Source: Macrostomum lignano
Taxonomy: Eukaryota
Direction: 5' to 3'
Length of the DNA: 64,000 bases
NCBI GenBank assembly: GCA_002269645.1
Contig: NIVC01000632.1
Location: 1-64,000 of the forward strand
Position numbers and translations under genes: made by a program. The notes under the pieces are model-generated. The model saw only the letters and a list, made by a program, of their open reading frames with translations. It did no database searches and had not been told where the DNA came from. This document shows positions 22,201 to 41,527 of this stretch, piece by piece. Each line of letters opens with the position of its first letter. The stretch's first letter is position 1.

Positions 22201-22358
22201 TAGAGCTAGATTACATCTTCGAAGTTTGGTCGGAAGATTTATTTCTGATTCCACTCTGTCAATTCAGTTGACTATATAAAATATAACTATACACAAGGGC
22301 TGGAGCTGCTAAGCTAGACGTGAAAGAAAACATCAATGAAAGTCTAGCTGTAACTCAC

Positions 22359-22770
22359 CTTTGATGAAGTCAACCGCCTGGTCCAATCCGTAGGTGTCCC
22401 TGTCGCAGTCGTCCTTGATGTAGCTGCCCAGCAGGATGCCGTCGCCAATAACGTCATGCTGGTTGATGTAGTCGATGGTGTACAGCATTGCCTCAAGCGC
22501 CTGCAGGCCACCCTGGTGCATGACCCGACCGCAGACCTTGTCCTCGGAGCGGGAGTGCACCATCATGAGGCCGCCCAGGTAAATGTCGCCTTTAGTAAAC
22601 ACCTTCTGCTCCTGGATTGGCCAATGCTGGGTTCTGCCGTGTCTATCCGTGAAGTTGATCAGCTTCTGGCGCCAGGAAACCTCAACGGTGTCGGAATGGC
22701 AGAGACGCGGTAGCGGAAGTAGAAAAATAATTGGCAACAGCAAGACCAGCGGCTTATGCACTGGCGCCAT
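22359..22770 (-). CDS. Class C GPCR (mGluR family, mXR/mangetout-like), coding exon 1: signal peptide and start of Venus flytrap domain
   Basis: MAPVHKPLVLLLPIIFLLP signal peptide; GDIYLGGLMMVH...CG...GGLQALEAMLYTID...DDCDRDTYGLDQAVDFIKG; donor G|GTGAGT at 22359/22358. Confidence 0.93.
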
Positions 22771-23544
22771 TATAGTTCAGCTGTACTTGAACAGCTTCTT
22801 CGAAAGCGACAAAGAAATATGGGCAATGTTTTGAGCAAAAGGAAGCGGGTTCTTATTGATTGCGCGATTGAGCTGCGTTTCTAGCAGTTAGCTCGGGCAG
22901 CTTTTTCCTTCAAATAGTCGCGACTCCATCAGCTTGATGTCGGAATCGCCAATTCGGACAACCGGCGGGAGGATTGGCGGAGGCTCAGCTGAGCCAATGA
23001 TAGCGCAGCCCAGGTCTGCGTGGTCCGATCCGCCTTCCCGGTGGGCTGCAGCTGTCCTGCTTTTGTTGGCGCGCGTGCTCAAGTGCAGAAAGCGCCGCGT
23101 AGCTCCGGGGAGAAGGCGAGAGGGGAAGGCATCAGGATGGTTTAGCTAGTATTGACTCTGTGCCGCATGCCTAATTGGGCTGCAGCCATGCCGCTTGCTT
23201 GCCCTTTTTGGCTTCTTACTCTGAATAGATCTACTTCGGCAAAACTTTTTGCTACTCTTCACTACTTTGATGATAATGTTTATACTCGAATAAAGCGAAG
23301 CCTGTGCATTGTGTCTGCGTACTCTATTTCTGGACAGTTGTCCACGACCTTATTTCTTCAGGAGCAAGGTAGCTCAGCGATTAAGAGCATCTGACTAATA
23401 TTTTCCCGCATTAAATAAATAAATAAACAACTTCCGGTACTTCTATTCGTAAGCTTTTGAGTCGGGCTCAATGATTCAGTCAAGGTATATCGATACTTCA
23501 AGCATGATAATATGCGTTTTTTATCCTATAACGACATGAACGCG

Positions 23545-23851
23545 AGTAGTATATAAAAAGACGCTTCTAGACCCAGAGCACTTTTTTAATTACCGTTTTA
23601 AGGGTCTAGAGGGGGGACACGGGGGGTAAATAAAAAAACACATCTAATCACCCTTAACACATCTAATCACCCATAATCACCCCTAACAATAAAAATCAAT
23701 CCCAACACTTCCAAACACTCCCCAACACCCCCCTCGCGTCCCCCCTCTTAAGACCTTAAAAACGGCCATTAAAATAAGGTCTGATCTGTAAGCGTCTTTT
23801 TCTATACTACTACTCTATAACCCCTTGCCCGCGCCGCAGGCGCGAAGGGTC
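23545..23851 (+). repeat. Polinton left TIR (~307 bp)
   Basis: Reverse complement of 41148-41452 with a handful of mismatches. Confidence 0.96.
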
Positions 23852-23868
23852 TTTTTCTGTTACTAAAA

Positions 23869-24183
23869 ATGACCCGAGTTTACACCTTTTCTGTTAGTGA
23901 TACTTTTGAGACTGTTGCTAAAAATGCAGAGATAATAAAACAACATATTTTGAATGGAATAATTGATGAAGTTTATTTAAAATATGACGACAAGCATGAC
24001 CTAAAGCTTTATCCATTAGAGCTGGATGAGATGTATGATTTAGAACAAGAGGGTGAGTTAATATTTCAACTTGGAGATTATTTAAATTCGGATGATTGGG
24101 AGGTTAGATCAACAGATTCCGAATCAACAAATAGTTCATATGAAACCAGTGATTCAGAGAATGAAAGTGAAATTTTTATGTGA
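23869..24183 (+). CDS. Polinton hypothetical acidic protein (104 aa)
   Basis: Open ORF, AAAAATG start directly after TIR. Confidence 0.7.
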   Translation: MTRVYTFSVSDTFETVAKNAEIIKQHILNGIIDEVYLKYDDKHDLKLYPLELDEMYDLEQEGELIFQLGDYLNSDDWEVRSTDSESTNSSYETSDSENESEIFM

Positions 24184-24199
24184 AAAAAATATTTAAAAA

Positions 24200-24454
24200 A
24201 TGAATTATTATTCTATAACAGAAACGACATTTATTGTGAAAAATATATATAAAAAAATGAAGGTAAATCGAACCCATGGTTCGCGTGCTTTGCACGATTA
24301 CTCCTACATCGGAAATGTGCCGATTAATGAACTTAATGAAAATTTAAGTTTGATAACAGTTGAACAAATGTCAATAATAATATTAGTAACAATTATAGTA
24401 ATAATATTGTTTTTGTTTGTTATAAAAAATTTACTACCATGTTGTCTCAAGTAA
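24200..24454 (+). CDS. Polinton small protein with C-terminal TM helix (84 aa)
   Basis: MSIIILVTIIVIILFLFVIKNLLPCC; contains an in-frame hairpin module at 24267-24298. Confidence 0.6.
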   Translation: MNYYSITETTFIVKNIYKKMKVNRTHGSRALHDYSYIGNVPINELNENLSLITVEQMSIIILVTIIVIILFLFVIKNLLPCCLK

Positions 24455-24464
24455 TTGTTCGAAC

Positions 24465-25382
24465 TTAGTTCGCTGATATTAGTTGGTTCTCATAAAACGA
24501 ACCCAATATTTCTTCACCGTCCTTATCAGCAATTATATAGGTTGTAGGATTGGTATTTAAAACTTTACTGATAGTAAATTTCTCACTTATCTTCCAATAT
24601 CCTTTTCTTCCTTTTTCAAACTTATCTTTCCATTTATAGATATAAACAGAATCACCAACCTTAAAAGATTTCTTTTTATTTTTTTCAAATTTTCCAAAAG
24701 TAACTTTAACGTTTTCAGGATTGTTATAAGCTTGTTGAGGAGTCATCTTTATAGCTGAATGATATGAATTGTTATAATCTTTCACTACGTCTGGTAATAT
24801 TTTTACCCACTTTTGGTTACCATTAAGACTAAACTGAAACCATAATTTCTTACCTAAAGTTCGATTAAATCTTTCTATTAATGCGTTTTTACTCTCTCCA
24901 TAAATAGAATAAATTTTATTAATATACTCCCCATTCGCGTCTTTTTTCCTTTCTTTTCCTTTTTCAAAATGATACAATTTATACATATGAGGATTGTAAA
25001 ATTCTTTTCCTTCATCAACACACAATCTTTCGCTTTTTTCTCCAAGACTTCTAAAAGCAGCAGCAACCTCCTCTCCCTTTTTGGATTTTAAAGGAATAGC
25101 CCACGCGTATCGAGTAAAACCATCTAATATGGTTAAGATATATTTATATCCTCTTTCGTTCGGCATCGACATTAAATCAGCATACCAAATTTCATTCTTT
25201 TTGAAGTTCATGATTTTTCTATAAAATTTAGGTTTTCGATATTCTTTATGAAGAATCTTTGCCTCATCAGAACTTAACCCACCACCACTTAATAATAAAC
25301 ACTCGACACAATTATTTCCATGTTGATTATAATTAATTCCCAAACCAAATTTAACTTTAGACTGCAAAATCTTTTTAACCAT
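24465..25382 (-). CDS. Retroviral-type (RVE) DDE integrase of Polinton; probably the C-terminal part of a PLA2-integrase fusion
   Basis: EIWYADL, YILTILDGFTRYAWAIPLKSK, CVDEGKEF, IERFNRTL (D-D-E intact), YNNSYHSAIKMTP; no chromodomain seen. Confidence 0.96.
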   Translation of the reverse strand: MVKKILQSKVKFGLGINYNQHGNNCVECLLLSGGGLSSDEAKILHKEYRKPKFYRKIMNFKKNEIWYADLMSMPNERGYKYILTILDGFTRYAWAIPLKSKKGEEVAAAFRSLGEKSERLCVDEGKEFYNPHMYKLYHFEKGKERKKDANGEYINKIYSIYGESKNALIERFNRTLGKKLWFQFSLNGNQKWVKILPDVVKDYNNSYHSAIKMTPQQAYNNPENVKVTFGKFEKNKKKSFKVGDSVYIYKWKDKFEKGRKGYWKISEKFTISKVLNTNPTTYIIADKDGEEILGSFYENQLISAN

Positions 25383-25612
25383 CCACCTAGTTAATCTTTG
25401 CCTACGATAATCCCTGCAAGTTATCTAATCCTTGAATCATTTTTTGATCGGCTTCATGTTTTAATCTTAATGCTTCCTCGGCGGGTTCTTGTCAGCATCT
25501 CTATATGCTAAGTCGTGATAGTATGCTAACCAATCAATCCCATTTATTGGAATTGAATCAGATTTTGGAGTATTGTCAGGATTTAATCGGAGATCGAGTC
25601 GAGTCAACCCGG
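25383..25612 (-). CDS. Parvovirus-type phospholipase A2 (PLA2X), 3' exon, with frameshifts
   Basis: TRLDLRLNPDNTPKSDSIPINGIDWLAYYHDLAY (catalytic HD), then EEALRLKHEADQK / MIQGLDNL in shifted frames. Confidence 0.85.
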
Positions 25613-25937
25613 CCTTTATACCTTTGCTTTCACAAAGGAGTAGACTGTGTCTTAAGCTATCATAAGGATTGACTAAGTCCTTCAAGCCCACCAGCGTACA
25701 GTCGTTGCATCTCAACCATACTCAAGTCATATGAGGTTAGGTTTTCGATTCACTCTTGCCCATATATTTATCTTCAAGCTTGTTACCGTTGGGAAGAGGA
25801 GTTACCTCTGTTCCTTTGTAATCTTTCGAAAACAAAGTGGTACTTGAAGCTTTAGGGGATTGAGTGAGCGGCTGGTGTTGCCACTAATAGTGACTAGCAG
25901 TAGCTTTGCATCTACCACTCGGCACAGCTCGAGCTCC
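25613..25937 (-). ncRNA. Group I self-splicing intron (~325-330 nt) interrupting PLA2X
   Basis: P3 CACCAGC/GCUGGUG; P4 UCACUC/GAGUGA; P6 AUC/GAU; J6/7 GCA; P7 A-(C bulge)-GACUGU/ACAGUC-U; J8/7 UAAGAC; P9 CCUUUGU-GAAA-GCAAAGG; 5' exon ends in U; candidate terminal G. Confidence 0.88.
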
Positions 25938-26063
25938 ACCCGCGAAGTTGTAAGATGGGATGTGTAATTCATTTGTATACCTTCCAGTAGTAAAGATTGG
26001 TGGTAAGCTTGTTAATCCTTTTTGAACATCTAACAATCCTCCTTCAAACACTATTTGGCTCAT
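25938..26063 (-). CDS. PLA2X 5' exon
   Basis: MSQIVFEGGLLDVQKGL...ELHIPSYNFAG, the first half of the HxPxYNxxGPGT Ca-binding loop. Confidence 0.85.
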
Positions 26064-26661
26064 TTTTAATAGCCTTAAAAATACATGAAAGCACCAATTG
26101 TTTTGCAAATTCTTCTATGGTTGGTTGTTTATCATTTTTTGAAATATTATCTACAGCAACTAAGTATCTTTTATTTCTCCAATTTTCAGACTTTTTAATT
26201 TGTTCTTCATCGCGATAATCAAAAGATGAAGCAGGAATAAAATGGTCAACATGCAAAACACCAATATAATCTTTTGGCACATAATAATGTTTTGTGAAAT
26301 TTAACCAATCAGTAAAGAATTCAATTGAGCAACCAAGGTAATCAACAGTATGATTATTTTTTCGAGCATTATTTGATTTTAGAAGAGAATATATTCTATT
26401 TCGTGTGTTTAAAATAAGTTTGTAATTTTCATCAGTTAATCTTCTTTCATTTTGATATTTTCTGCGCCTTTCTATATTATTTTTATCATATTCTTTTTTC
26501 CATTGAAGCTTATATTCACGATTTTTCTCATACCATTCTTTATCATACTTTCTCTCACAAGGTTTGCAAATACTATAATATCTATTTTGATCTCTACGAA
26601 ATCTAAAATAATCCAAAATTTTCTCTTCTTTACATTTATTACAAATTTTTGTTTCATCCAT
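26044..26661 (-). CDS. Free-standing HNH-type endonuclease (NCLDV/virophage-like) with N-terminal zinc finger
   Basis: CNKC..CKPC; YLGCSIEFF; LHVDHFIPASSFD...WRN...DNISKNDK. Confidence 0.82.
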   Translation of the reverse strand: MDETKICNKCKEEKILDYFRFRRDQNRYYSICKPCERKYDKEWYEKNREYKLQWKKEYDKNNIERRRKYQNERRLTDENYKLILNTRNRIYSLLKSNNARKNNHTVDYLGCSIEFFTDWLNFTKHYYVPKDYIGVLHVDHFIPASSFDYRDEEQIKKSENWRNKRYLVAVDNISKNDKQPTIEEFAKQLVLSCIFKAIKNEPNSV

Positions 26662-26684
26662 TTTATAAAAAATAAATTTAACAA

Positions 26685-27338
26685 TTAAACTCCAGTATGT
26701 CCAGCAGCTTTCGCAGCAGCTAAAACAAGTTTTCGCGGTGTTTTAAATCCATCACCAACAGCTGGTTTGTTATTTATAGAATTAACAATCCATTTATACA
26801 AGCTGGTATTTTTAACAGCTCCTCCTAACTCATCATAAAAAATTCTAGCACTTATTAATTCATCCCTAGTATATAAATCGGGGTTAAATTTTACCCTAGG
26901 GTTCGTAATAATATTAAATGCTCCGCCCAATTCTCTATATAGTTCATTTCGATCTTTAACAACGTTACCAATTCGATAATTACCACCACCTAAATCTGTC
27001 ACAGCAATACTAGTTGGTGCAGGTCTCGGATATTGTTCAACTCCACCCCTAATCTCTTCACGTCTAATTTCTGCAACTCTAAATATTGCTTGATCAGTCT
27101 CATAAGCAGGCGGCTCATCCAAAATTTCATCCTCTTTTGGCTCAGTATTTTTAGCAATTTTTTCCAGAAGATCTTTATCTGTTTTTTCTAGTTCACTAAT
27201 TTTCCCAGTAATAGGATTAACAAAAGGAGCAGCAAATCTTTCGCCAGCTAATTGTATTCCTAACTTTCTTTTTTGTAAATTTCTAACAAAATCAGAATAT
27301 CTTTGCTTCTCTTTATAAATCGCTAAACTCTCCATCAA
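26685..27338 (-). CDS. Polinton hypothetical protein (217 aa), ERFxxPFxNPIT motif recurrent in Polinton accessory ORFs
   Basis: Long open ORF; family assignment from memory and uncertain. Confidence 0.6.
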   Translation of the reverse strand: MMESLAIYKEKQRYSDFVRNLQKRKLGIQLAGERFAAPFVNPITGKISELEKTDKDLLEKIAKNTEPKEDEILDEPPAYETDQAIFRVAEIRREEIRGGVEQYPRPAPTSIAVTDLGGGNYRIGNVVKDRNELYRELGGAFNIITNPRVKFNPDLYTRDELISARIFYDELGGAVKNTSLYKWIVNSINNKPAVGDGFKTPRKLVLAAAKAAGHTGV

Positions 27339-27390
27339 CGTCCATAAATTGACTCATTTTTTAACATAAAAACTTTTTTAACTTAAAAAA

Positions 27391-28883
27391 ATGGCTGAAA
27401 CAAAAAACTATGTGGAGTGATAAATTTCATTTCAAAAAGCACGACAGTATATTTAATGAGGTCAGAGCAAGAGATTTAAATTATACCCTACAAAAGTGAT
27501 AATTCAAATAACTTTTACTGGACGGTAACTTTTGGACATCGGCGCAACCAACACTATATTGGATATGAAAATGCGTTTATTCCGCGTTAGATGGTTGTAT
27601 ACTAGAAATGATGGAACTGCTCTTGCAGCCGGAGATATCGCAGATCGATCCGGAATAATAATAGAAATGATTGTTTTATAAATGTTTTTCCCAAGCTCAA
27701 CTAACTGTTAATGGTGCTGAGGTTGAGACATCATCAAACCCCGCAGAGATTAATGGAGTTTTGAAACATTTAAATATACTTATTTATCAAAACAAGTTGG
27801 TGATAATGTTGGGTGGATGCCGGATAAAGGTAACGGTCAAGCAGTAGTTTTCCTAATGCTACAAAACGCAGCTGGTGCAGATACTGCAGCTCTAATTGCT
27901 TACCTTAATACAAACATAGTTCCAGTTGTAACCACTATGACTAATACAAAAGATATTAACACCGCTTTATAGATCGTCAGAATAAATTCCAGTTGCAGTT
28001 TTAACCACGGCAACGGATATGAGCAGGACTTTTCAATCTTCCGCTATTTGGGTTCTTCTCACCAAATCGGGTATGGAAAGGATTAAAATTTGGGATACAG
28101 TTGCAAATATCTGGTGGATATCAGCTAGGATACTTTATGGAACCTCAATTTCAACCGATATAGCAGTTCGTATAGATTCAATTCAATTAGTCGTACCAAC
28201 TATTGAGGTAACAGCCCCACTTTTAAAACACATCGATAATCAGTTAACGCATGATCAGGAAATATTTTATTTGAATCGTCGACATTTTATGCGAACCATT
28301 AATAATAACAGGATTCATTCCAGTGGCAAATACTGACATCAAAACGTCGGGTGAGATATATTTTTGTTTGGTTTAAGATAACAAATAGAAGGAGTAAAAG
28401 AGCAAATGGGGATTTATATTGGCTTCAATCCGGTGCCATAGCAGAACAAGCAGCCACCGCAACAGACAATGCGGCTGCAGCTATTAACGAGTTTAATGTT
28501 CAGAATATCCGCCTGCAGGTTGATGATCAATATTATCCGGTTAAAGACCCCTAAATTTAAATATAGCAAATAATAATGTTAATGATTTTATAAAATATTA
28601 TCAAGATTATGCTAAAAATGAAGCGTATGCCGTCCCTCAGTACACACCCACAGAGTTTCTAAACATTCATCCAGTGGTTGTTTATGATCTAACGGCACAG
28701 AAAGAAAACGTAGCCAATATTGGACTTAATTATATGTTAGAGATTAATAAAACCGGTAATCAGGCACTTGACGCCCACGTATTGTTTCTAGAGGAATATA
28801 TGTCAATTGCTAAAGCTGATGGCACGATTGTTCGGGACGCGCACTTTAGTGTCGCAGTGCAAAGCACGTCGCCCCCGCTGTAA
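27391..28883 (+). CDS. Major capsid protein (double jelly-roll), broken by several frameshifts
   Basis: Pieces across frames: VTFDIG, QAQLTVNGAEVE, IRLQVDDQYYP, YTPTEFLNIHPVVVYDLTAQKE; ~1.5 kb length and position fit MCP. Confidence 0.8.
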
Positions 28884-28931
28884 GCGGTGCAGGTCTCCGA
28901 CCGTCGCGCCTATTTAAATTTTTCTTTAAAA

Positions 28932-29687
28932 ATGGTAAAGGCAAAACACGATAAGATATTTCCAAATGATCCTTTTCTTTGTTTAGTAATCGGAGGATCA
29001 GGTAAAGGAAAAACACACTTTGTTTACGATTTATTAACAACAGATGGAATGTTAGACTATAATAATTTAATAATTTATACTAACAAACCTAGAATAAAAT
29101 ATTATGAATTTCTTAAACATGGATTAAAAAACAAATTAAAAAAGATGTCTTGTTTAGAATGTTAAGAGCATATGAGCAATATGAGGATGATGACGAACCG
29201 CGATTTACACTCGATGACATTGAGGATTTATGTAAAACAATGGCACAACAACCAGAAAACATCACCGAACGAGCCCCCAACTGTTAGAGTATCAACCCGA
29301 TTAGCCTATGATCAAATTCCAAAACATGATAAAACACTAATTATTTTTGATGATTGTATTAATGACGGTGATCAAGAATTGCAAAAGGAAATTTTTGTTA
29401 GTGGTAGAGGAGATGGAATTGGAGCTTTTTATCTAACACAGTCCTTTAGAGAATTAGAATCGATTATAAAAAAGAATGCAAGTTGTTGTGTAATGTTTGA
29501 TTTAGATAATTATGATTTACAAAATATACACGCTAGATTTAATCCTGGGTTGGATACAAAACAATTTAAAAGCTTGTGTAAAAAAATTTGGGATGATAGC
29601 CAATACAAACATATATATATCAACCCAAGGTTAGAAAGGAAAAATCGAATCTTAAAAGATCTGATGAAAGAGGACGATGAGGATTAA
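28932..29687 (+). CDS. A32/FtsK-type packaging ATPase, one frameshift near 29160
   Basis: Walker A GGSGKGKT; Walker B LIIFDD; FVSGR; YLTQS. Confidence 0.92.
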
Positions 29688-29702
29688 TTTCCCACTATAA
29701 AA

Positions 29703-30487
29703 ATGACTACAAATTTAAATACTATAAAACAATTGGTAGATCGAACTAATTCAAAATTTAGTACAACCTTACAGTTTATAATGACAACCAGTGAACAACG
29801 TATTCAATTGCGCGACCCGTTACAACTTGATCAAAGCCTAAGTTATCAAATAGGTTTGATACTATTTTCGGTTTTTAACATGCCTCAATTAATTAATGCA
29901 ACAAATAATCAATTTAGATATTCTAAAGATTCCGGAGCCAATTGGACAACATTTAGCGTTAACCCAGGAGCGTATTCCTATACCGATTTGAATGCTTATA
30001 TAGAAGGAGAATTAACAACTAATGGAGATTGGGTATCAGGCGCAATTGTTATAGGGGTTGATTTACCATCTGGCAGATTCACACTATCACTAGGATCCGG
30101 ATATCAGGTTGATTTCACAATTGCAAATTCACTCAGAACCATACTTGGATTTAATTCCCGAATCGTTACCACATCAAGCACCGGCGATACTGTTGGAAAT
30201 ATTGAGGGTGGTGTTAATACAATTAATATTACAACCGACATATCAAACGGCGGTTATATAACAGATAATAATGGAGTTTTGGTTCAACGTGGAATTATTT
30301 ATTCAATCCCATTTCTTGCTGTTCCAATTGGAGAGAAAATGATTGTTTCACCCAAACCCCAATATATTATCCTTTAAATCAATATAGTGTTCAATCAATT
30401 TATATTAGGATTGTAGATGAAAGCGATAGATTAATAAGTTTTGGTGGGCAGTCAATAACAATAATTTTACGTATAAAACAGGTTTAA
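29703..30487 (+). CDS. Minor capsid protein (penton, single jelly-roll), frameshift near 30370
   Basis: NNQFRY, PGAYSYTDLN, IYSIP..VPIGEK; shifted C-terminus PLNQYSVQSIYIRIVDESDRLISFGGQSITIILRIKQV. Confidence 0.85.
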
Positions 30488-30497
30488 TATTGTAAAA

Positions 30498-30668
30498 ATG
30501 GGTAACAATAGTTTAAAAAAACAAACGGAAAAAGTTCAAAATGCAAAGGATAATTATGAAATCGAACTAACAAAATTGAAACAACTGCAAGCAGAAAAAA
30601 TCCGAAAGGAACTGTTAAAATCCAAACCAACGAAACTAACCAAAACCAAGAGTTTTTCAGGAACATAA
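30498..30668 (+). CDS. Small 56 aa basic coiled-coil ORF starting MGNNS (possible N-myristoylation)
   Basis: Below the ORF-track cutoff; AAAAATG start; fills the gap between mCP and protease exactly. Confidence 0.5.
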   Translation: MGNNSLKKQTEKVQNAKDNYEIELTKLKQLQAEKIRKELLKSKPTKLTKTKSFSGT

Positions 30669-30669
30669 A

Positions 30670-31106
30670 ATGACTATGAATTGGCAGTTGTTCAAACAAA
30701 GATATGGAACAGACACAACAAGCAATATTGAATTAACAAATTGGGCGCGACAACTAAAAATAAAACCATTCAGATGTGTTATGCGAGATGAGATCAAAGA
30801 CTTACCACAATATGGATCTTTCATTGTTAATATTGAAACAACAAAAGAAAACGGGGTTCATTGGTCAGCAGTTTATTCAAAACCTAAACTTGTTTATTTT
30901 TTTGATTCATACGCGCTTCCTCCGTTACAGGAAATAAAAGATAAATTTAATCATACTAAAAATCGTTTATGTGGAGATCATCATGAACAATTTCAAACAT
31001 TTGACAAAAGTTATTGCGGGCAAGCGCGTTGTATTTTTTATATAAAATTAATAACTCTAAGGAAAGACCCGAAGCATTTAAAGCAATTTTAGATTCTATA
31101 AAATAG
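30670..31106 (+). CDS. Adenain-like cysteine maturation protease (C-terminal frameshift)
   Basis: GVHWSAV (His), YFFDSY (Asp), FQTFDKSYCG (Gln, Cys). Confidence 0.9.
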
Positions 31107-31116
31107 ACAGTAAAAA

Positions 31117-33047
31117 ATGTTATTTTCTGGAACACCCTCATGGAACGGAACAACAAGTACTGGTGGAGGCGCATCTGGTGGAATAAGTGTTACATTCGGA
31201 GATAACCGATATATTAATGAAGATGAAGGTTATAAAAAAACTGAAATTGATAATAAACTAAATTTGAAACGGAATGTTGCAGATTCCTATACCAAAACTC
31301 AAATAGATGATTCATTAAATTTAAAACGCAATACAGCCGATTCTTATACCAAAACGAAGTTGATAATTCCCTAAATTTAAAACGGAATGTTGCCGATTCT
31401 TATACCAAAACTGAAGTTGATAATTCCCTAAATTTAAAAAGAAATATAACTGATTCTTATACCAAAACTGAAGTTGATAATTCCCTAAATTTAAAAAGAG
31501 ATATAACTGATTCTTATACCAAAACTGAGGTTGATAATTCCCTAAATTTAAAACGGAATGTTGCCGATTCTTATACCAAAACCGAAGTTGATAATTTAGT
31601 TGGAGGTGGAGCCCCAAAACAGGATCGATTCCAAACGGTTGAAACCGGACACGTACCAACTATGGCAGCTTGGAGTGGAAATGGTTTTGCAATATCCGCA
31701 AGCACAGCATTTAATACAACCGATTTTGCAAGTTGGAAAGCGTTTGATGGTAATGATTCAACAGATTGGGCAACAAATAATACTCAAACTGATTATTGGA
31801 TTCAAGTCCAATGTCCATCCGCGATAATGTGTTATAAAATTGATTTACGTGGGAGACCATCACCATCAACCGAACACCCAGCATCATGGCGATTTGAGGG
31901 CAGTAATGACAATACGAGCTGGGATGTTTTAATACCGGCTGGCAGTTCTGTAGAAATAAATAACTCAACTCAAACAATTAATGTCACACAAAATTTTGAT
32001 AAAACATATTCATATTTCAGATTGTTCTGTCTTACATCAACATCGGGTTCTACCAACCCCGGCTTATCAACTTTTCAGATTTATAGACAGACTTTTACAA
32101 TTCTTGATTTAAATTTGGGAGTTGTTAATCAATCAATTGATATGGGTGGTAACACAATTACTAACATATCTACTATAAACAATAACAGTTCTGTTGTTAC
32201 TAAAGGTTATGTTGATACGCGAGTAACCCAAACGGCAGATGGCCGAATGTCTTTTAACGATAAAATAAAATTGGATGGCATACCGGCAATTGATGCCGCT
32301 TTGTACGAACCCGTAATTTGCAATTGGACTGGGTATCAAAATCCAACCACTGCCGGCGATATTTTTCCAACAGGAAGTTTCGTTGGCGACGCTTCTTATA
32401 TCGATTATCAAAATGGAGCTAGAATTACTCGTGAAACCTCAGGTGTAAGTGGTGCTTTACAATTTAATTTCACCCATTTTCGTAATATATCCGCCTCCTT
32501 CTATTTCCGAGTTGCTAATGCTACAGGAGATGGTGCTGACGCTGTTTGGTTTTATGCATACTGTCATGAACGACCAACAAGTGAATTTGGAACTGGATTA
32601 ACAACCGACGCCGGCTTGATAGTGTTTGCGAGTGAATGGCATGACAGAGTTGGGGTTCTTTGGAGTAATAAAAAATCAGACGGAGCAACAGTTCGTAATG
32701 ATGTTCTTAATGACGCCGATCAAACGATAACTTATGCAAATATTGATAATGGCGATTGGCATTTATTTGAAATTAATATTTTAAATCAAAGAGTTTGGTA
32801 TCAATTAAGATCATACAATGTTTCAACCAAAGTTTATACACTAATTGGGCAAAACTTTTTTACATATGATAGCGGAACTTGGGGAGAGTTGGATAAAACA
32901 GGAACTCTTATGGGGTTTGGTGCTCGAACTGGAGGATCGGATGCTGCACATTTTATTCGTGGTGCCGCCGTTTGTGGTAGCACATCAGCAGGCTATGATT
33001 TTGCTGCGACCGCATATTTGGAACAACCACCCACACAGATCAGCTAA
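31117..33047 (+). CDS. Fibre/spike-like protein: 19 aa DSYTKTEVDNSLNLKRNVA repeats, F5/8 discoidin domain, MGGNTITN..TKGYVD stalk, L-type lectin domain; frameshifts near 31350 and 31620
   Basis: 57 bp repeats at 31339, 31395, 31452, 31509, 31566; WKAFDG..WIQVQ..SWRFEGSND..W; GADAVWF...GFGARTGG...HFIR. Confidence 0.78.
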
Positions 33048-33116
33048 TGCTGCGACCCTACGGGCGATCGCCTAAGGCGCGGACTTCGTCCGATCAGTTA
33101 AATATTTCTATATAAA

Positions 33117-33416
33117 ATGGCTTTTAGTAGAACTCCATCGATGCGGCAAAATAATGTTATTATTCCTATTCCTAAACAAGAATCAAATATAAAAACATTC
33201 AAATCTCATACCAAATTTTTATTTAGTACTGTAAATGTTCAGGATAATAAGAAGCTTCAAGAATTAATTAAGTTATTAAAAAATCATATTATACTTCAAG
33301 AGTTTTGGAAAATAGGATTTAAATGGGAGAAAAAAGAAAGAATCACTCCAATACAATACCTATTGAGCTCGGGACAAATCCCAAAGAGCGCGGGGAATTC
33401 ATTTTGGTGCTATTAA
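33117..33416 (+). CDS. Polinton hypothetical protein (99 aa)
   Basis: Open ORF with TATAAAATG start. Confidence 0.55.
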   Translation: MAFSRTPSMRQNNVIIPIPKQESNIKTFKSHTKFLFSTVNVQDNKKLQELIKLLKNHIILQEFWKIGFKWEKKERITPIQYLLSSGQIPKSAGNSFWCY

Positions 33417-33428
33417 AAATAGACGAGA

Positions 33429-34067
33429 ATGTCGGTATCTGAAGCAGATAAATGGGAACGCGACCGGTTCAACCAACGTAAAGGTCAGATGTTAAGTAAT
33501 GTTGATCGTATTAACTATGATTATGATTTATATACTAAAAAAGTAAGAAGAGTTTCAAACCATATAAGAAATATGGACTTTTTCAATATTGGATTTGGAA
33601 GCTTATCAATGTTATGTGTAATCGTTTTAGGTATTTTACAATCTATTCCAACTCTTAATTTATCTCAATTATTTTTAGGTATTTCAATTGGCTCAATATC
33701 AGGTTTTGAATTGATCAGAAACTTATCAATACTTTTAGCAATTAAATTATATCTTAAAAAAAGAAAGGAAAAATATAAATCATTAAGAGATGTTGCCAAG
33801 CAATATAAAAATCAGTTATATTTATATGTGCAAAAAATATTGGATGACGGAGAGATAACGATTCATGAATTATCAACCGCGGTTGAGTTATATGAAAAAT
33901 ATTTAAAAGATAGAAATAGAATTTTAGATGTTGAAACTTTTACCGATATGGAATTAAAAGAGTTGAGACTCGATAAACCCAAAGCTCCACCGATAGAAAC
34001 ATTAGGCATTTACGAACCTGAAACTATTGCTACTGGGCACAAAGCCCGCGGTCAGGAAGTGCGGTAG
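33429..34067 (+). CDS. Two-TM membrane protein with helical tail (ILDDGEITIHE motif)
   Basis: Hydrophobic segments at ~50-75 and ~80-108 aa followed by a K/Y-rich helix. Confidence 0.7.
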   Translation: MSVSEADKWERDRFNQRKGQMLSNVDRINYDYDLYTKKVRRVSNHIRNMDFFNIGFGSLSMLCVIVLGILQSIPTLNLSQLFLGISIGSISGFELIRNLSILLAIKLYLKKRKEKYKSLRDVAKQYKNQLYLYVQKILDDGEITIHELSTAVELYEKYLKDRNRILDVETFTDMELKELRLDKPKAPPIETLGIYEPETIATGHKARGQEVR

Positions 34068-34564
34068 AACTTCAGGTTGTTTAGTTTTTCTAATGCATAT
34101 GTTATATATTCTTCCCAAAGTGGTAACTCTCTTCTGATCCTAGGTTTAAATTTTTTATCAATACATAAAAATTCCAATGACTTTTTCAGTAACATTTCGT
34201 TAGGTATGTTACCTATCCTTATAAACTTTGTATTCTCTCGAATAAGAAAATTGAAATAATATCCAACTAAAATTAAAATCCTTTCGGAGTCTTTCGAACT
34301 TAATCCCTTTCCTTTATTTAAATGGAAAAAGTTATTATATAAATAAACATTATTTCCGGGAATTAAAATTGGATCAGAAATGTCTCTTGTAAGATTTCTT
34401 AAAATTGTATTTTTAAAATAGTAATATGAGTTTTCAATCTTTTTTGTTTTTTCAAATTGATATATTTTAGAACATGAATAACACATATGATATATATCTC
34501 CGTTTGCTGTTTGCCCTCTGTGCATAGTCACATTACATTTATTACATTCGTAAATGTCTTTCAT
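34052..34564 (-). CDS. Hypothetical protein with N-terminal zinc ribbon (170 aa)
   Basis: CNKC...CYSC. Confidence 0.65.
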   Translation of the reverse strand: MKDIYECNKCNVTMHRGQTANGDIYHMCYSCSKIYQFEKTKKIENSYYYFKNTILRNLTRDISDPILIPGNNVYLYNNFFHLNKGKGLSSKDSERILILVGYYFNFLIRENTKFIRIGNIPNEMLLKKSLEFLCIDKKFKPRIRRELPLWEEYITYALEKLNNLKFYRTS

Positions 34565-34590
34565 TTTTTTGTTATTTTTTTAGATTAAAA

Positions 34591-34923
34591 ATGGAGAGCT
34601 GGTTCAAAACCGATTCTAATGTGATTAATTATCTCACACCCAATATGTTGGAGAATAAAGAATATAATATTATATGTTTGAGACAGGTTAAATTTATTGG
34701 GCTTCAATCAATATTTTTACAATTAGATGGGCAAAAAATTTTATGTCTAAGCGGAGATGATGTTAAAAATTTTCCTGTTTTAGTTATTAATAAACCTAAA
34801 GCGTTTGTTATGAAATACTGCAACGAGGGTGGATTGCAATTTAAACTAAAACAAACAAATAATAAAAAGAGTGATAGGACTGTAAAATTGGCGGCTGTTT
34901 GGGAGGATGACGACGAAGACTAA
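34591..34923 (+). CDS. Hypothetical protein with acidic tail (110 aa)
   Basis: Open ORF, AAAAATG start, ends WEDDDED. Confidence 0.65.
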   Translation: MESWFKTDSNVINYLTPNMLENKEYNIICLRQVKFIGLQSIFLQLDGQKILCLSGDDVKNFPVLVINKPKAFVMKYCNEGGLQFKLKQTNNKKSDRTVKLAAVWEDDDED

Positions 34924-34938
34924 ATTTTTTATAAGAAA

Positions 34939-35274
34939 ATGGATACGATAAAAATCCTTATCACTAAAGAGCGTGAACTTAATGATATTAATAAAAAAAT
35001 AAATATAATTATATCTCAGAAATATCATGAGTATGGGGACGATATGTTTCCCATCCGATATGAAATGGATAAAAGAAAACGTTTTATTAAATCTGCAATT
35101 GCTTATGCTGAAACAGTAATTGAAATCGAAATAGATAGGTTGGTTAGAAAAATAAAAAAACTTAGGAAAAAAATAAAGGATTGTTTAAGTTACCCTGACG
35201 ACTGCGAGGAAATTGGCCTTCAATATTATATGAAATCGAAATGGATATTATGCTTAAACAATTACATGCTTTAG
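34939..35274 (+). CDS. Hypothetical helical protein (111 aa)
   Basis: Open ORF, AAAATG start. Confidence 0.6.
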   Translation: MDTIKILITKERELNDINKKINIIISQKYHEYGDDMFPIRYEMDKRKRFIKSAIAYAETVIEIEIDRLVRKIKKLRKKIKDCLSYPDDCEEIGLQYYMKSKWILCLNNYML

Positions 35275-35302
35275 TTTTTTCCGCCCCGAAGGGTCGCGGA
35301 TT

Positions 35303-38300
35303 TTATCCGATAAGTAATTTTTCTGTTAATCTCTTCCAGTTATTCAAGACTTTTTCCTTATTTAATTTTTTAAGTTCTTTTGGAAATGTTGAATAATAAT
35401 TATCTATATCTTTTTCATATTCTAGAAATGTATTATATTCACAATCACATTCGGATTCACAATCACAATCGTAATAATAATTATTTATTGCCGCTTTGTA
35501 TTCATTATATTTACTTATTATATCTTCTTTTTGTTTTTTATCTTTTATCATATTTTTTATCTCTTCTTTTAAACCATATGGATATGTTTTAATTTTATCA
35601 TCTAAATATCTTTTATCATCAAATGGACTTAATGTTTTTTTATCTGTCTCGATGACAAACATCTGATGCTTATCTGAATTTAATCGATATTGTGGAGCAT
35701 GATAATTTTCAATTGTATTAAGGTAATCTAAAAGTACGTTTTTATAATCATCAAATGTTATCTTTTTAACTGCTGCCCTTGATACCCCTTTTATTTTTTT
35801 TACCTCTCCCTCCTGTCCTAAAACTTTAAATGCATAGCATTTTGATCTTATTGCTATAAACTCGGTTATGATTTTGCTATTTAATTCATCTTTCATTTTA
35901 AGTACAACTTTTTTATTTTGATCTGATTTTAAAGGATGGTTATCCGGATAGTCGGAGGTATCCAATGTATCCTTAATTTTTTCCATATCTTTATAGACAT
36001 CGAACCTTTGGTTCGCGGGCTTTGCCCGATCCTCTGTTTCAACCTTAAATACCAAACTGTCGGTGTCTGCATATATTGGATAGTTATCTGGCCATGTTTT
36101 ATTTATAACATCATAATAATATTCATACATTACCAGCTTTGCATAATCTAAAACAACCATTCCAATAAATATTGGTTTAAGAAATTTTGTTGTTTTATTT
36201 CTCATATGAATACCCATAAAGTTATCATCAAATTTTATAAAGTCTTTAAAGTTAGGTTTTGAGAAATATTTCTTTGCTTTATCAATATCCTTTTCTAAAT
36301 GGAATTGGGTTCTATCTCTAATATTTTCAACCGTTTTTCCATAAAAAGCATTATTCATTAATTTCCAATAATCTTTCTCAAAATTTGTTTTTGACATCTG
36401 TCTCTGATTTGAATTAAAATCAATATATTTAGCTAACCAATCTTCCTCAATAAACGATATTGTTCGATGTACTTTAGACACTTTTAATCCCTGCTTTTCA
36501 TAAAATTGTAGAAGCTTATAATGCACTACATAGTTTTTCTTATCATGTAAATTTAATATTAATTTTTTTGTTGCTAGATGTTTTGCATTATCTACTTTAA
36601 GATAATCTTTTTGTGTTTGTGATAAATCATCTTCATTAACTGAACAATGCTCTGGAGCTAAAGGATATTTATATGTTTTTGCTTTTGCTTCCCGAGTATA
36701 TTGCAAATCCACCTCTACAATACAGCCCCTTCCTTCGGGAATATTTTTGTAATAATCGGGGTCATCTTCCCATTGGAAATCAGCTATTGGTAATTTTTGT
36801 TTCATACAACCACCGTATAAATTGTTTGCATCTAGATATAATACATATGATGATTTTTCTTTTTTATTATAATTTGGTAGATATTTATTATTTACTTTAG
36901 TATATCTATCTCCTAGTACACCCGAGAATCCGCCGCGAATTCCTCTCTCAATCATTAACAACATATCATGATCAGTTAGTAAATCAATCTTAACATCTGT
37001 ATGTTTCAAACCACAAGCCCATGTTAATCCCGGTGCACTGAAACAATATGCGGGATCAATTTTAAAATTCTCATATGTATGATTCCTAAAGTTTTCAAAT
37101 GCATCAGCTAATAGGAGAACATCTGCTTTAAGATATAGATTATGATAATCTTTAAATGTTTTACAATTAAAGTATTTCCATACTTTTTGAGCGTGTTCAT
37201 AATCCGATTCACTTATATTTGATTGTGATAATGTGGAATAAAACTTTTCTATGGGCGGTAATTCGGTATGAAAAAATACGTCTTCAGATGTTACATATTC
37301 ATATGGATAGATGCCCTTACGAGTTAATAGCATTAGTTCTTCCTCGGATAGTTTTTCTTTTTTGAAACGATTCAATAGTATTGGAAAGTTTTTCTTTACT
37401 ATTTCTAAATCCCATGGTTTTGGAACTAATGATGAAACAACATTTGCTAAAGATGTTGATAAGAATCTCAAGGAATCTAGAAAAACTAGATGGGAGTATT
37501 TCTTACCATATGTTATTGATATGTAATTTTCTGATGTTTTAGGTAATATATTTATTTCATATTCATCCTTTCCTAAATGAAGCAATTCTCGAACTAAGAA
37601 ATGAAAATCATATCCGGAACCATTATGAAAAAATACTGGTATTTCCTTACATCCTTTTCCTTCTTTTGCATTACATGATCTACATGCTGCCCCTCGATAA
37701 TTTCCTGTTAGATGACAATGTTCTCGTATCTTATTATTCTTACTTAAATGTCTTTTGCACATAAAACAATTTGTTGCATTTTTATAATTGTCTCTATCCT
37801 TATTTGTCATATTAATATTTTTTGATAATTTATCATATTGATTTTGAATATATTCAAATACATTTACTAATGATTCTGCCATGTGCTTAGCTGCATCATT
37901 ACCGTGGTAAGTAATCATCCTTGATTTAAATATATGATCAGCTACAGAGTGTACATATATACAATAACTATTCGGAAACTGTTGTGCCAATTTTTTTGTG
38001 CATTCGTCCCGTAGGGTCGCGTGCTTTGCACGATCCCCATCATCAGATGCCGTCTGTGATTCTTTTAAGGGAACATTTGTTGCTTCAAAATCAGCATATA
38101 TTACTATTGGTTTTTTAACTGCCATATAATGTTGTTGGAACTTTAGGGTTGCATCTTCAGATGCTGGCATTATAGCATTAGTAAATTTGTGATCTAAACA
38201 AAATCGTTGGTGGTTTTTAAGAGCTGTTTCATCCTTTTTAAATGTAAAACAATTTCTACATAGTGGATATCTATTTCTATTTTCTCTTAAAAAAGAACTA

Positions 38301-39286
38301 ATATCTTTTATGTATATATAATGTGTTTCATTTTCGCGCTGCATGTACAAAAGATCGATTTGATCTGGTGCTGTTATATCAGTTGCTGGCTTAACAAGAT
38401 AACACCTTTTCTTATACCATTCTGGATCGGTTAAAATTTCTTCTAGATCTTTTGGTTCTTCAATTGTAAACACATTAATATTTAAACCATTCATTTTTTC
38501 AATCTTATATATATCATCTATTGCTACTGGGTATGATATGTTTTTCATTATTATTTCATCCTCATATTGTCTATAATTATATATTTTATTAATGTGTGAT
38601 TCTACTTGATTGTGATATTTATGAATTAATAAACACCATAATAAACATTTATTATCTTTATTGTCTGGATTTATAATCATAGGTGATTTAAATTTGAGCT
38701 TCATATGTGATCGTCCTTTAAGAATTTCAATAGGAACAATCTTTACTATTGCTGAATTACAGGATACAAATATAAACCCAGATCCGTTTTCTGTCATCTT
38801 ATCTATCCATTCATCAAACTCAGCTTCTATTTGATCGAATTGATTGTTGTAATTTCCCATTGATAATAATGTTTTATATGATTCTTGTGAAAAGTTATTT
38901 ATTACTTCAATTTCTGAATTTGCATTAAGAATATTTGGTTTTTTAAATTCTGTTTCAACTTCTATTTTATACTTAATTGGCTGTCGTTTGTTATTTGGCC
39001 TTATAGTATAATTGATTAATATGGTCTTTAATTTATCTTTCATTTGTTTAAAATATTCTTTATAATTTGTATTTATATCTATATCTATATATATTACTTC
39101 AGCTCCATTTTGTCCTTGTGGTTGGAGGTTATCAATATCATTTAATTGTCTTTCTAAACGTATCTCATTTTCTGCCCTAATTCTTGCTTCTATTTCAGCC
39201 CTATCGGCAATTCGTTGTGCTTCGATTTGAGCTATTAATTGTGCTCTAAGTTCAGGGTTGTCGATTTGAGCTAAAATTGCTTCCAT
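35303..39286 (-). CDS. pPolB: Protein-primed family B DNA polymerase (1327 aa) with C2H2 finger and endonuclease VII-like zinc domain
   Basis: Exo motifs IYADFE, FFHNGSGYDFH, YLKADV; Pol motifs YLDANNLYG, KLMNNAFYGK, YADTDS; uninterrupted ORF. Confidence 0.98.
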   Translation of the reverse strand: MEAILAQIDNPELRAQLIAQIEAQRIADRAEIEARIRAENEIRLERQLNDIDNLQPQGQNGAEVIYIDIDINTNYKEYFKQMKDKLKTILINYTIRPNNKRQPIKYKIEVETEFKKPNILNANSEIEVINNFSQESYKTLLSMGNYNNQFDQIEAEFDEWIDKMTENGSGFIFVSCNSAIVKIVPIEILKGRSHMKLKFKSPMIINPDNKDNKCLLWCLLIHKYHNQVESHINKIYNYRQYEDEIIMKNISYPVAIDDIYKIEKMNGLNINVFTIEEPKDLEEILTDPEWYKKRCYLVKPATDITAPDQIDLLYMQRENETHYIYIKDISSFLRENRNRYPLCRNCFTFKKDETALKNHQRFCLDHKFTNAIMPASEDATLKFQQHYMAVKKPIVIYADFEATNVPLKESQTASDDGDRAKHATLRDECTKKLAQQFPNSYCIYVHSVADHIFKSRMITYHGNDAAKHMAESLVNVFEYIQNQYDKLSKNINMTNKDRDNYKNATNCFMCKRHLSKNNKIREHCHLTGNYRGAACRSCNAKEGKGCKEIPVFFHNGSGYDFHFLVRELLHLGKDEYEINILPKTSENYISITYGKKYSHLVFLDSLRFLSTSLANVVSSLVPKPWDLEIVKKNFPILLNRFKKEKLSEEELMLLTRKGIYPYEYVTSEDVFFHTELPPIEKFYSTLSQSNISESDYEHAQKVWKYFNCKTFKDYHNLYLKADVLLLADAFENFRNHTYENFKIDPAYCFSAPGLTWACGLKHTDVKIDLLTDHDMLLMIERGIRGGFSGVLGDRYTKVNNKYLPNYNKKEKSSYVLYLDANNLYGGCMKQKLPIADFQWEDDPDYYKNIPEGRGCIVEVDLQYTREAKAKTYKYPLAPEHCSVNEDDLSQTQKDYLKVDNAKHLATKKLILNLHDKKNYVVHYKLLQFYEKQGLKVSKVHRTISFIEEDWLAKYIDFNSNQRQMSKTNFEKDYWKLMNNAFYGKTVENIRDRTQFHLEKDIDKAKKYFSKPNFKDFIKFDDNFMGIHMRNKTTKFLKPIFIGMVVLDYAKLVMYEYYYDVINKTWPDNYPIYADTDSLVFKVETEDRAKPANQRFDVYKDMEKIKDTLDTSDYPDNHPLKSDQNKKVVLKMKDELNSKIITEFIAIRSKCYAFKVLGQEGEVKKIKGVSRAAVKKITFDDYKNVLLDYLNTIENYHAPQYRLNSDKHQMFVIETDKKTLSPFDDKRYLDDKIKTYPYGLKEEIKNMIKDKKQKEDIISKYNEYKAAINNYYYDCDCESECDCEYNTFLEYEKDIDNYYSTFPKELKKLNKEKVLNNWKRLTEKLLIG

Positions 39287-39369
39287 TTTATAGAATAAAA
39301 TTTATATAATGTTTGAATTATTGATTTTTTAATTTTGCGTTTTTGGTGTCCAGACCCTCCCCCAGGAGC

Positions 39370-40364
39370 CTATTCGAGATCTGCTTTTGGTAATAGCAAT
39401 CCATTGCCCATAACGTTTGAATTTAAGAAAATTCCTGAACCTGCTTTTGGTCGCATTTCGAGATATAATCCGCTTCCGTCGTGTTTTTCAATGATATTAA
39501 AATCTTTTCCTAACTTAGTAAAAATCTTCTGAACAGCCGGTCTAAAATTGGATCCAATATTGTCAAAAAATCCTTTAGCTTTCTCACCCGTTTTTTCTAA
39601 AGTTTGGCCAAATTCATGTAGTTTATCTGCGACAACTCCGCTTCCTTGGGTTGTTCCTTTTAGTACCAAACCATTCCCGTGATTTGTTCCTTGCAAGAGT
39701 AAACCTTTTCCAGCTGATAACCTAGCTTCTGCATTTCTTTTTTGCTCGGCTGTTGCTGAACTACTATTAATTGTATCGATAAGTTTTTGTTTAAATTGTG
39801 CGTCCTGCGTTATTTGCTGTCTTTGAAATTCGGCCTCTCTTTTAGCTTTTTCGTCCGCAGCTTTTTTGTCATTTACTGCTTTTGCAATTCCAGCTGCTCC
39901 GCCAGCAACTCCTCCAGCTGCTCCAATTCCTGCAAAAATTATTGGGAGCAAAGCTGCAAGGGGTAAGATTCCCCCTGTTTCGCTCTTAACTCTCCTAGCT
40001 GTTTTACATTATCATGAATTCTTTTTCCGGCTAAACCGACTGCTCCAGCTGCGCCAAGTCCTAAAAGAAGCGGTAGAATGGGTAGTAATCCGCCGTCCTT
40101 TTTAGTGTGAGTCTCCATTAAAAATTTCACATCGGAGTCTGTCAACCTATAATTTCTGCCGCGATTCTTAAAGGATATTGGCCTTCCTTCTTGTGCATAT
40201 TTTGCTGCGAGTTTAAATGTATCGATGTCGTAGTCAAACTTTTTACCTAATCGATCCAATCTTTTTAACATTGTGTGGGTTTGCTTATTATCATCAAGAT
40301 TTAAGGTATCTACAATTTCTCCTATAAAATATAACCGGTTTTCATCATCATTAACTGAGTCCAT
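39370..40364 (-). CDS. Core/cement precursor resembling adenovirus pX/pVII (probably one frameshifted ORF: 39939-40364 plus 39370-39951)
   Basis: KDGGLLPILPLLLGLGAAG and GGILPLAALLPIIFAGIGAAGGVAGGAAG; repeated G-x-G-hydrophobic motifs. Confidence 0.65.
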
Positions 40365-40374
40365 TTTTATATTG

Positions 40375-40773
40375 TTAAAATTTCTTTAATCCTTTTCCAC
40401 CTTTAATAGTATTTAACATTTTATTAAAATCCTGAATATCTTTATTACTTATTGGCGTGGTTTTCGTGGGGGTTTCTGTTGGTTGTGCGGCTTGTGCCAG
40501 CTTTTAATCTTTTATTGCATTTATTTGTGAGAGGGTGTCGTTAAAATCTCTCAATTTCTTTAGTTCTTCTGCCGCTCTAGCTGCTTCAATTCCTCCTTTT
40601 ACAGCATTTGTTATAGAGCCTGCTGCAGAGCCAGCTTGCCCTATAAGCCCCATATTGTCTTTAACAAAATTTGCTGCTGTTCCAACCAAATCAAAAAGTC
40701 CCTCACCTCGGTATTCAATTGGATCTCCTACCTGATACTCATTTATATTTTGCACATGTGTAACGTGTGTCAT
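40375..40773 (-). CDS. pVI-like virion protein (GxG site followed by amphipathic helix), frameshift near 40500
   Basis: YRGEGLFDLVGTAANFVKDNMGLIG; shifted C-terminus ...NTIKGGKGLKKF. Confidence 0.55.
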
Positions 40774-41147
40774 TTTTTGTTCTATTTTTAGTAACAGAAA
40801 AAAAGAATACGAGAACACACAAAAGAATATTTTTCAACCCAAGATGGTGTATATACTGCATTGAGTCATTTTTTTCTGGACGTCCAGAATTTTTCTGGAC
40901 GATTTGTTAAAAACTTATTCATTGATGGTGGGCACCCCATTTTACTTGTGACGCGCGGAGCCTGTCTTCTTCTTCCTGAGAGATGAGCTAGAACTGGGTT
41001 GATGGCTGTGGTTTTTATAGAGTTGGATGGCTGAGTGGGCGTTCAATTCCTGCTACGGCAAGATTTTGCAAGCTAGCCAATAGTGGCTATGAGAGTAATT
41101 TTTTGTTGAGTGTTACTATTACCATGACTCAGTTTAAACTCTTTTGT

Positions 41148-41452
41148 GACCCTTCGCGCCTGCGGCGCGGGCAAGGGGTTATAGAGTAGTAGTATAGAAA
41201 AAGACGCTTACAGATCAGACCTTATTTTAATGGCCGTTTTTAAGGTCTTAAGAGGGGGACGCGAGGGGGTGTTGGGGAGTGTTTGGAAGTGTTGGGAATG
41301 ATTTTTATTGTTAGGGGTGATTATGGGTGATTAGATGTATTAATGGTGTTTAGATGTGTTTTTTTATTTACCCCCCGTGTCCCCCCTCTAGACCCTTAAA
41401 ACGGTCATTAAAAAAGTGCTCTGGGTCTAGAAGCGTCTTTTTATATACTACT
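41148..41452 (-). repeat. Polinton right TIR (~305 bp)
   Basis: GACCCTTCGCG...AAGCGTCTTTTTATATACTACT. Confidence 0.96.
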
Positions 41453-41527
41453 CCTGCACTACACAGAAGAGGAGCCCGCAAAAGTAAGTGATCACTTTAT
41501 TTTGTTCCCAGGCTTAAGTGTCTGGAA

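Follow-up and report, generated by a model that had tools for sequence, protein, structure and literature searches.

Collaborative and trans homing have both been described from phages. In cyanophage S-PM2, the nuclease F-CphI is free-standing, lies beside the ORF-less group I intron of psbA, and takes part in collaborative homing with it; the accessible part of the same source gives the DHHRN family, which includes F-CphI and Endo VII, a second His and an Arg, and no central Asn (PMC6083498). In phage T4, the free-standing HNH protein MobE mobilizes the nrdB intron and, according to the available portion of that article, does so without cutting at the insertion site (PMC2790892). Protist PLVs harbor group I introns of approximately 300 nt as well as free-standing HNH genes, with the introns placed upstream of the capsid gene and, in the sections available from the source, without a nuclease partner (PMC12220804). 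For PLV and poxvirus helicases and replicases, collaborative homing is put forward only as a hypothesis in the accessible parts of two reports (PMC11296320; 10.64898/2026.10.13.758929). A search of the mainly open-access literature, supplements excluded, returned no paper describing group I introns in Polintons of animals or a GGNCC enzyme carried by an intron.

The locus compared here with these systems belongs to a Polinton integrated in the 764-Mb assembly of the eukaryote Macrostomum lignano, and was analyzed within a window of 64,000 nt (positions 1 to 64,000 of contig NIVC01000632.1; Table 1). Outside the element, the host ORF at 22333-22770 looks like exon 1 of a gene for a metabotropic glutamate receptor, suggesting that the host is probably an animal. 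The polymerase ORF of the element (35303-39286) contains an endonuclease VII-like domain (PF02945, E 2e-6), and such a domain has been reported in some nematode Polinton polymerases (10.1101/2023.08.22.554363). The Pfam matches of the element included no evident methyltransferase.

Table 1. Features of the Polinton and of its nuclease slot (window coordinates)
Feature	Position	Strand	Remarks
Polinton/Maverick element	23544..41453	.	17.9 kb; terminal inverted repeats (TIRs); integrase and A32 ATPase matches
TIRs	23544-23851 and 41148-41453		paired ends of the 17.9-kb element
Exon 2 of the PLA2-integrase gene	24465..25613	-	remainder of the parvovirus-type PLA2 domain, followed in frame by the rve integrase, apart from the break near 25480
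Group I intron, type A	25614..25937	-	324 nt, ORF-less; 3′ end inferred from the L211 alignment and the frame
Exon 1 of the PLA2-integrase gene	25938..26063	-	42 codons, last base U; start overlaps the HNH end
HNH-type nuclease ORF	26044..26661	-	free-standing, 205 aa, unbroken; occupies the swappable slot
AT-rich leader	26662..26684	-	common to all slot genes; upstream cassette boundary
Conserved gene	26685..27335	-	flanks the slot on the upstream side; no function assigned

The slot ORF encodes an N-terminal Cys4 finger followed by long helices and a site composed of D139-H140, N163, and N172. An earlier note on this DNA had described an intact HNH ORF overlapping the PLA2 start and ending ~105 nt from the intron insertion site, and both statements hold: the overlap amounts to 20 nt (ATG at 26063), and the distance from the ORF end to the 5′ splice site (25938/25937) was measured to be 106 nt. 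The protein has no match in Pfam; among PHROG families, it matches endonuclease VII (E 1.7e-11) and HNH endonuclease (E 5.3e-8). Across 82 HNH sequences, H140, N163, N172, and K175 are invariant, and D139 and the four cysteines are nearly so. In the predicted model (pLDDT 96), residues 136-140 and 164-168 form strands and residues 169-175 a helix. Thus, the residues, the modelled motif, and the PHROG matches together identify a putative beta-beta-alpha-metal nuclease. Fold searches with the model gave nothing significant—the best Foldseek rows being HNH domains of Cas9, none with an E below 0.065—and a match to the Hpy99I finger (Z 4.0, rmsd 2.4, 40 aligned residues) was below significance. 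DHHRN membership was ruled out, with the protein reading D-H-F-I-P without the second His, and with its central N163 invariant.

The neighboring gene is a PLA2-integrase fusion, encoding 424 aa in the intron-less copy L061, and the intron is regarded as an insertion because the two exons are contiguous in three sister copies. The absence of an internal ORF, as claimed earlier, was borne out, the longest ATG-started frames being 19 aa (sense) and 38 aa (antisense). A P3-P7 core, an exon U-guide G pair, and a terminal G were all found in the sequence, as expected of a group I intron. Rfam RF00028 matched at E 1.3e-6 and 32.7 bits, under the 50-bit cut-off, when a 551-nt stretch was searched; a scan of the whole 18-kb element missed the intron, and the type-B intron of copy L026 yielded no Rfam report at E ≤ 0.01, with RF00028 relatives of the window intron scoring above the cut-off (88.9 and 85.2 bits). 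Furthermore, the intron guide covaries with the 5′ exon end, reading CGGGT/GCCCG in 22 of 24 type-A copies and CAGGT/GCCTG in 105 of 114 type-B copies (matches listed), and P7 differs on both sides between the two types. Intron A (25614-25937) has the same P2/P5 periphery as type B, with the P3-P4-P7 core rewritten and both strands changed, and its 3′ half resembles the intron of the metagenome contig L211. The P2 of the window intron is a minimal hairpin, the position at which the introns of a second Polinton family (family 2) hold a nuclease ORF.

A terminal A, not the canonical G, is found in 84 of the 114 type-B introns among the matches listed (e.g., L048, L075, and L105); the coral ND5-717 intron is a precedent for the lack of a terminal G (PMC6545197). 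Exon 2 of the window contains a frame break near 25480, which may be an assembly error because contigs from four public runs differ from the window at this place; the same place is open in 20 of 24 listed type-A copies. At the predicted junction, for which the splice site is inferred, the exon-2 start is altered in type-A copies, to Gly-Ala-Gly-Leu-Thr as opposed to Gly-Pro-Gly-Thr. No exon-joined contigs were found for intron types A and B in five runs (X1, X2, X5, X9, and X16), which are not recorded as RNA and therefore do not bear on splicing. Introns broken by insertions of ~0.8 kb and 7 kb occur among L024 and G000:C986. A short insert able to form a hairpin, with CGAACC...GGTTCG as its core, is found repeatedly, both at slot edges (L014, L021, L022, L048, and L070) and inside intron P5 of L075 and L159; it may be a tiny mobile palindrome. 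In addition, at least 150 further uninterrupted PLA2 matches (PF08398) belong to another repeated element (G000, e.g., C3584, C2724, and C172), and GGNCC is present in three 10-kb stretches around such matches, host DNA included.

Sister copies were compared in a census of 142 family-1 loci among the matches listed, with 13 duplicates and two deletion derivatives without PLA2 left out and all counts being lower bounds; L042 and L043 are deletion derivatives that kept the HNH gene and lost PLA2. Within this census, the slot holds an HNH gene at 102 of the 142 listed loci, 99 of them with the intron (83 of type B and 16 of type A, like the window) and three, from two independent lineages, without it. 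A 167-aa Eco47II/EcoO109I-like nuclease gene with the same slot boundaries fills 37 of the listed loci, all with the intron, and an acidic ORF accompanies the intron at two; one locus was left unassigned. The acidic ORF encodes 153 aa (L022:987-1445, and L097) without a Pfam or PHROG match, and L022 retains a short 3′ HNH remnant. On co-occurrence across copies, which the earlier note had named as one check of its proposed HNH-intron partnership, the outcome was negative at the family level: HNH presence is not correlated with the intron (99, 3, 39, and 0 loci for HNH with and without intron and other genes with and without intron; Fisher p = 0.56, at low power with two intron-less lineages).

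Strict collaborative homing, in which the HNH protein—at least that of the window allele—would cut intron-less or type-B insertion sites, only the intron and its co-converted exon edge would protect, and both would spread together, is improbable. In its favor, among the matches listed, the window allele is accompanied by intron A at 13 of 13 loci and is found at none of the 83 HNH loci with type B; intron A occurs with other slot genes at 11 listed loci, and the reciprocal, the window allele without intron A, was never found among the loci listed. Nine copies have a 1.1-kb block in common, comprising HNH, exon 1, and intron, at 0.1-0.5% distance, amid flanks at 3-7.5%, and an intron-borne HNH relative exists elsewhere. 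However, the 13 copies reduce to about three sublineages, and import of a block from a diverged element would leave an identical pattern. All three intron-less copies retain an HNH gene with the catalytic motif (ORFs of 189, 189, and 165 aa, two of them full), albeit as alleles differing from that of the window, and one of these copies is a full-length element with TIRs 97-98% identical and intact capsid and ATPase genes. One identical intron A adjoins three different slot genes: the window HNH, the 167-aa gene, and an HNH with only 53% identity to that of the window. For 52 de-replicated copies with HNH and type B, intron distance follows the far-side gene (rho 0.70) over HNH (0.46), with a bootstrap difference of 0.07-0.39. 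The intron-less HNH copies, the shared intron A, and the rho comparison thus indicate that the intron does not depend on the HNH family as a whole, and that this family also occurs apart from the intron. In 53 type-B copies, HNH sites are no more strongly linked to the exon sequence near the insertion site than elsewhere (r2 0.03-0.06 throughout), and other HNH alleles do not retain their own exon and intron as the window allele does.

The 167-aa gene encodes a putative PD-(D/E)XK nuclease, with a weak match to Pfam Eco47II (E 0.0011) and with a predicted model matching EcoO109I (E 3e-4) and AvaII (E 8.7e-4). The recognition sites of the latter two are RGGNCCY and GGWCC, respectively. Homologs of Eco47II cleave GGNCC (PMC10305163). 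In family-2 Polintons, of which 30 of 41 matches and L159 were examined, an ORF 62-66% identical to this gene lies inside an RF00028 intron (the relatives scoring 88.9 and 85.2 bits) at the same codon, in eight of nine intron-bearing and in none of 22 intron-less loci; the independent contig L211 has the same arrangement, with the PD-(D/E)XK ORF within the intron. The insertion site of type-B and family-2 introns is a Gly-Pro codon pair, split as GGN|CC. In the 17.9-kb window element, GGNCC was observed zero times against 8.7-14.3 expected, the strongest depletion among 2304 gapped words, and its sole occurrences in 134 loci among the matches listed (368 kb) are the three junctions without an intron and a single foreign insert. 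Two family-2 10-kb stretches contain GGNCC once (at the junction) and not at all; the host flank contains 78 GGNCC in 46 kb. The nuclease and an intact site occur together in none of 37 family-1 loci, a count not significant alone, and in none of 22 intron-less family-2 loci (matches listed).

Never being found with an intact site, and with an intron that splits its predicted site, the PD-(D/E)XK gene would form with this intron a pair of the collaborative-homing kind, judged from the sequences, and it fits such homing better than HNH because it is intron-borne in family 2, because GGNCC is split, and because GGNCC is absent element-wide. This shield argument is weakest for the window copy, since the type-A junction would contain no GGNCC even without an intron. 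At three intron-less family-2 loci (L179-L181), the junction encodes Gly-Gln, not Gly-Pro, and the GGNCC word is lost; at another (L158, G000:C1874), a duplicated exon 1 and then a remnant of the intron 5′ end lie upstream of an intron-less gene. For the HNH protein, GGNCC was rejected as a target because HNH genes survive in copies whose GGNCC junction is intact, as was the next most depleted word, CCNGG (seven sites against ~23 expected), which is exposed in exon 2.

Relatives elsewhere provide a further link between nucleases and intron. The top-scoring HNH relative among 1.8 billion representatives, P0013 (43%, E 2.4e-36), ends in a tail that is a translation of the core of the window intron lineage (E 1e-13), and the tail is found in five of seven members of its cluster, the other two being shorter fragments. 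It is identical at 46 of 47 positions to the tail of P0176, a relative of the PD-(D/E)XK gene, so that one intron appears to carry either nuclease elsewhere, like the slot here. Such a tail was found in only one of 150 HNH representatives, namely P0013, which, in a tree of 50 relatives (P0035 dropped), belongs to the same subfamily as the slot HNHs (support 87/84) and is not their sister, with P0015, P0020, and P0036 being closer. As a hint only, a 2489-nt contig is given for P0186, an intron-less PLA2-integrase, and likewise for P0020, an HNH fragment. IMG/VR contains 19 distant HNH loci (best-segment identity 26-52%); RF00028 gave no match in the 10 of them scanned, and IMG/VR searches with the PD-(D/E)XK protein, P0013, and P0187 gave no match. 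Also set aside were 80 IMG/VR matches of a 16-base intron motif, which are without intron, PLA2, or PD similarity, and four extra matches of this motif in the same genome, attributed to chance.

The explanation favored here, to which we give a little less than an even chance, is that the HNH protein is of the homing type and cuts rival Polintons near the intron site, carrying the intron, and that the intron shields against a predicted GGNCC cutter. In this view, the intact HNH gene is one of the optional nuclease genes of an exchangeable position ahead of the intron-split PLA2-integrase gene, and its product would recognize a longer, allele-specific site through the fast-changing finger, cutting other Polinton copies near, but not strictly at, the insertion site. 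Its own copy may be spared through local differences in exon sequence and not via the intron, as in MobE trans homing, and breaks would be mended from another copy of the element, with the intron carried along when repair tracts allow. Both nucleases would be active, the intron shielding against the restriction-like slot gene. The relatives of both nuclease families whose ORFs enter the core of the window intron lineage argue for this explanation, and if, as with MobE, no cut is made at the insertion site, HNH genes in intron-less copies would be allowed. Against it, a 4-base cutter would also cut the GGNCC-containing host DNA, and the words and exon sites analyzed yielded no target for HNH. 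The missing exon linkage of HNH sites in type-B copies, the single intron tail among 150 HNH representatives, and the lack of a significant fold match for HNH also count against it, as does the type-A junction of the window with respect to the shield. Of the F-CphI-like partnership first proposed, the idea of a homing-type partner, the intron tail of P0013, and an allele tied to intron A stand; the strict pairing is improbable, with HNH also beside intron-less alleles and uncorrelated with the intron, and with the PD-(D/E)XK gene of 37 of 142 listed loci fitting the shield logic.

By analogy, the system in the window most likely resembles MobE trans homing more than it does F-CphI. Like F-CphI and psbA, as described in the accessible source, it has a free-standing beta-beta-alpha-metal nuclease, here predicted, adjoining a group I intron that lacks an ORF, and the population also contains alleles free of the intron, but it resides in a eukaryotic integrated element, its HNH gene also lies by intron-less alleles and shares the slot with an unrelated nuclease, and its putative nuclease is not of the DHHRN family. 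It has in common with MobE and nrdB, again from the available text, a free-standing HNH gene adjoining an intron-bearing gene; the partner copies here are integrated Polintons, and a restriction-like nuclease uses the same slot. That alternative slot gene, not HNH, is like Eco47II, EcoO109I, and AvaII in its weak Pfam family match, its fold matches, and the avoidance of GGNCC by the element, and unlike them is intron-borne or intron-adjacent in its sister versions. Unlike in protist PLVs, the intron lies in the PLA2-integrase gene of what is probably an animal element, with nucleases inside or beside it. A broader reading, which we consider rather unlikely, is an intron-centered arms race of nucleases among the integrated Polintons of one animal, with the intron replacing methylation as protection against the GGNCC cutter and the window HNH allele driving intron A through co-resident copies; one self-splicing intron lineage would recruit a restriction enzyme or an HNH nuclease, in its P2 loop or in the adjoining slot.

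It is likewise improbable that the slot genes are interchangeable as weapons or accessory nucleases—directed at other elements in the same genome, at a virus infecting the same cell, or at host DNA, or serving genome processing—with HNH taking no part in the mobility of the intron, which would guard against the GGNCC cutter only. The element-wide loss of GGNCC does resemble restriction avoidance more than homing to a single site, most members of the very large HNH family (15,606 clusters at E ≤ 0.001) have no intron tail, and PLV HNH genes have been read, in the portion of the source available, as packaging or restriction-like (PMC12220804). However, HNH and PD-(D/E)XK ORFs that elsewhere end in one intron core represent the arrangement of a homing endonuclease gene, and HNH is not needed in cis, being absent from 39 of 142 listed loci.

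With respect to selection, dN/dS was estimated from random subsets of 32, blurred by recombination, at 0.39 for the HNH nuclease half, 0.94 for the finger, 0.57 for HNH overall, 0.09 for the integrase, and 0.26 for the PD-(D/E)XK gene; judged from these rates, the nuclease half is under purifying selection, and the finger is near 1. The least probable explanation, that general recombination among copies moves HNH about as selfish or neutral cargo and that its closeness to the intron is historical, draws on free recombination among all locus segments (pairs identical in one are identical in another 12-66% of the time) and on an overall dN/dS far above that of the integrase, but is opposed by the constrained nuclease half, by catalytic residues kept in 68 of 68 intact ORFs from alleles 53-100% identical, and by HNH ORFs remaining unbroken as frequently as those of PLA2-integrase (68 of 101 and 94 of 140 intact, respectively, and in 25 of 37 for PD-(D/E)XK; matches listed).

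Nuclear group I introns are, in the accessible part of one account, described only in rRNA genes (PMC3679873). The first reading of the locus was partly supported. With approximately 140 listed copies in one eukaryotic genome in which a nuclease adjoins the intron, with one of these nuclease types placed inside the intron in another family, and with natural intron-less alleles, the proposed route from a free-standing nuclease to a mobile intron becomes testable. A ribozyme masking the only unavoidable site of a restriction-like enzyme would amount to self-protection free of methylation, and, if the arms-race reading is true, the free-standing and intron-borne stages of a homing endonuclease would coexist in one genome.
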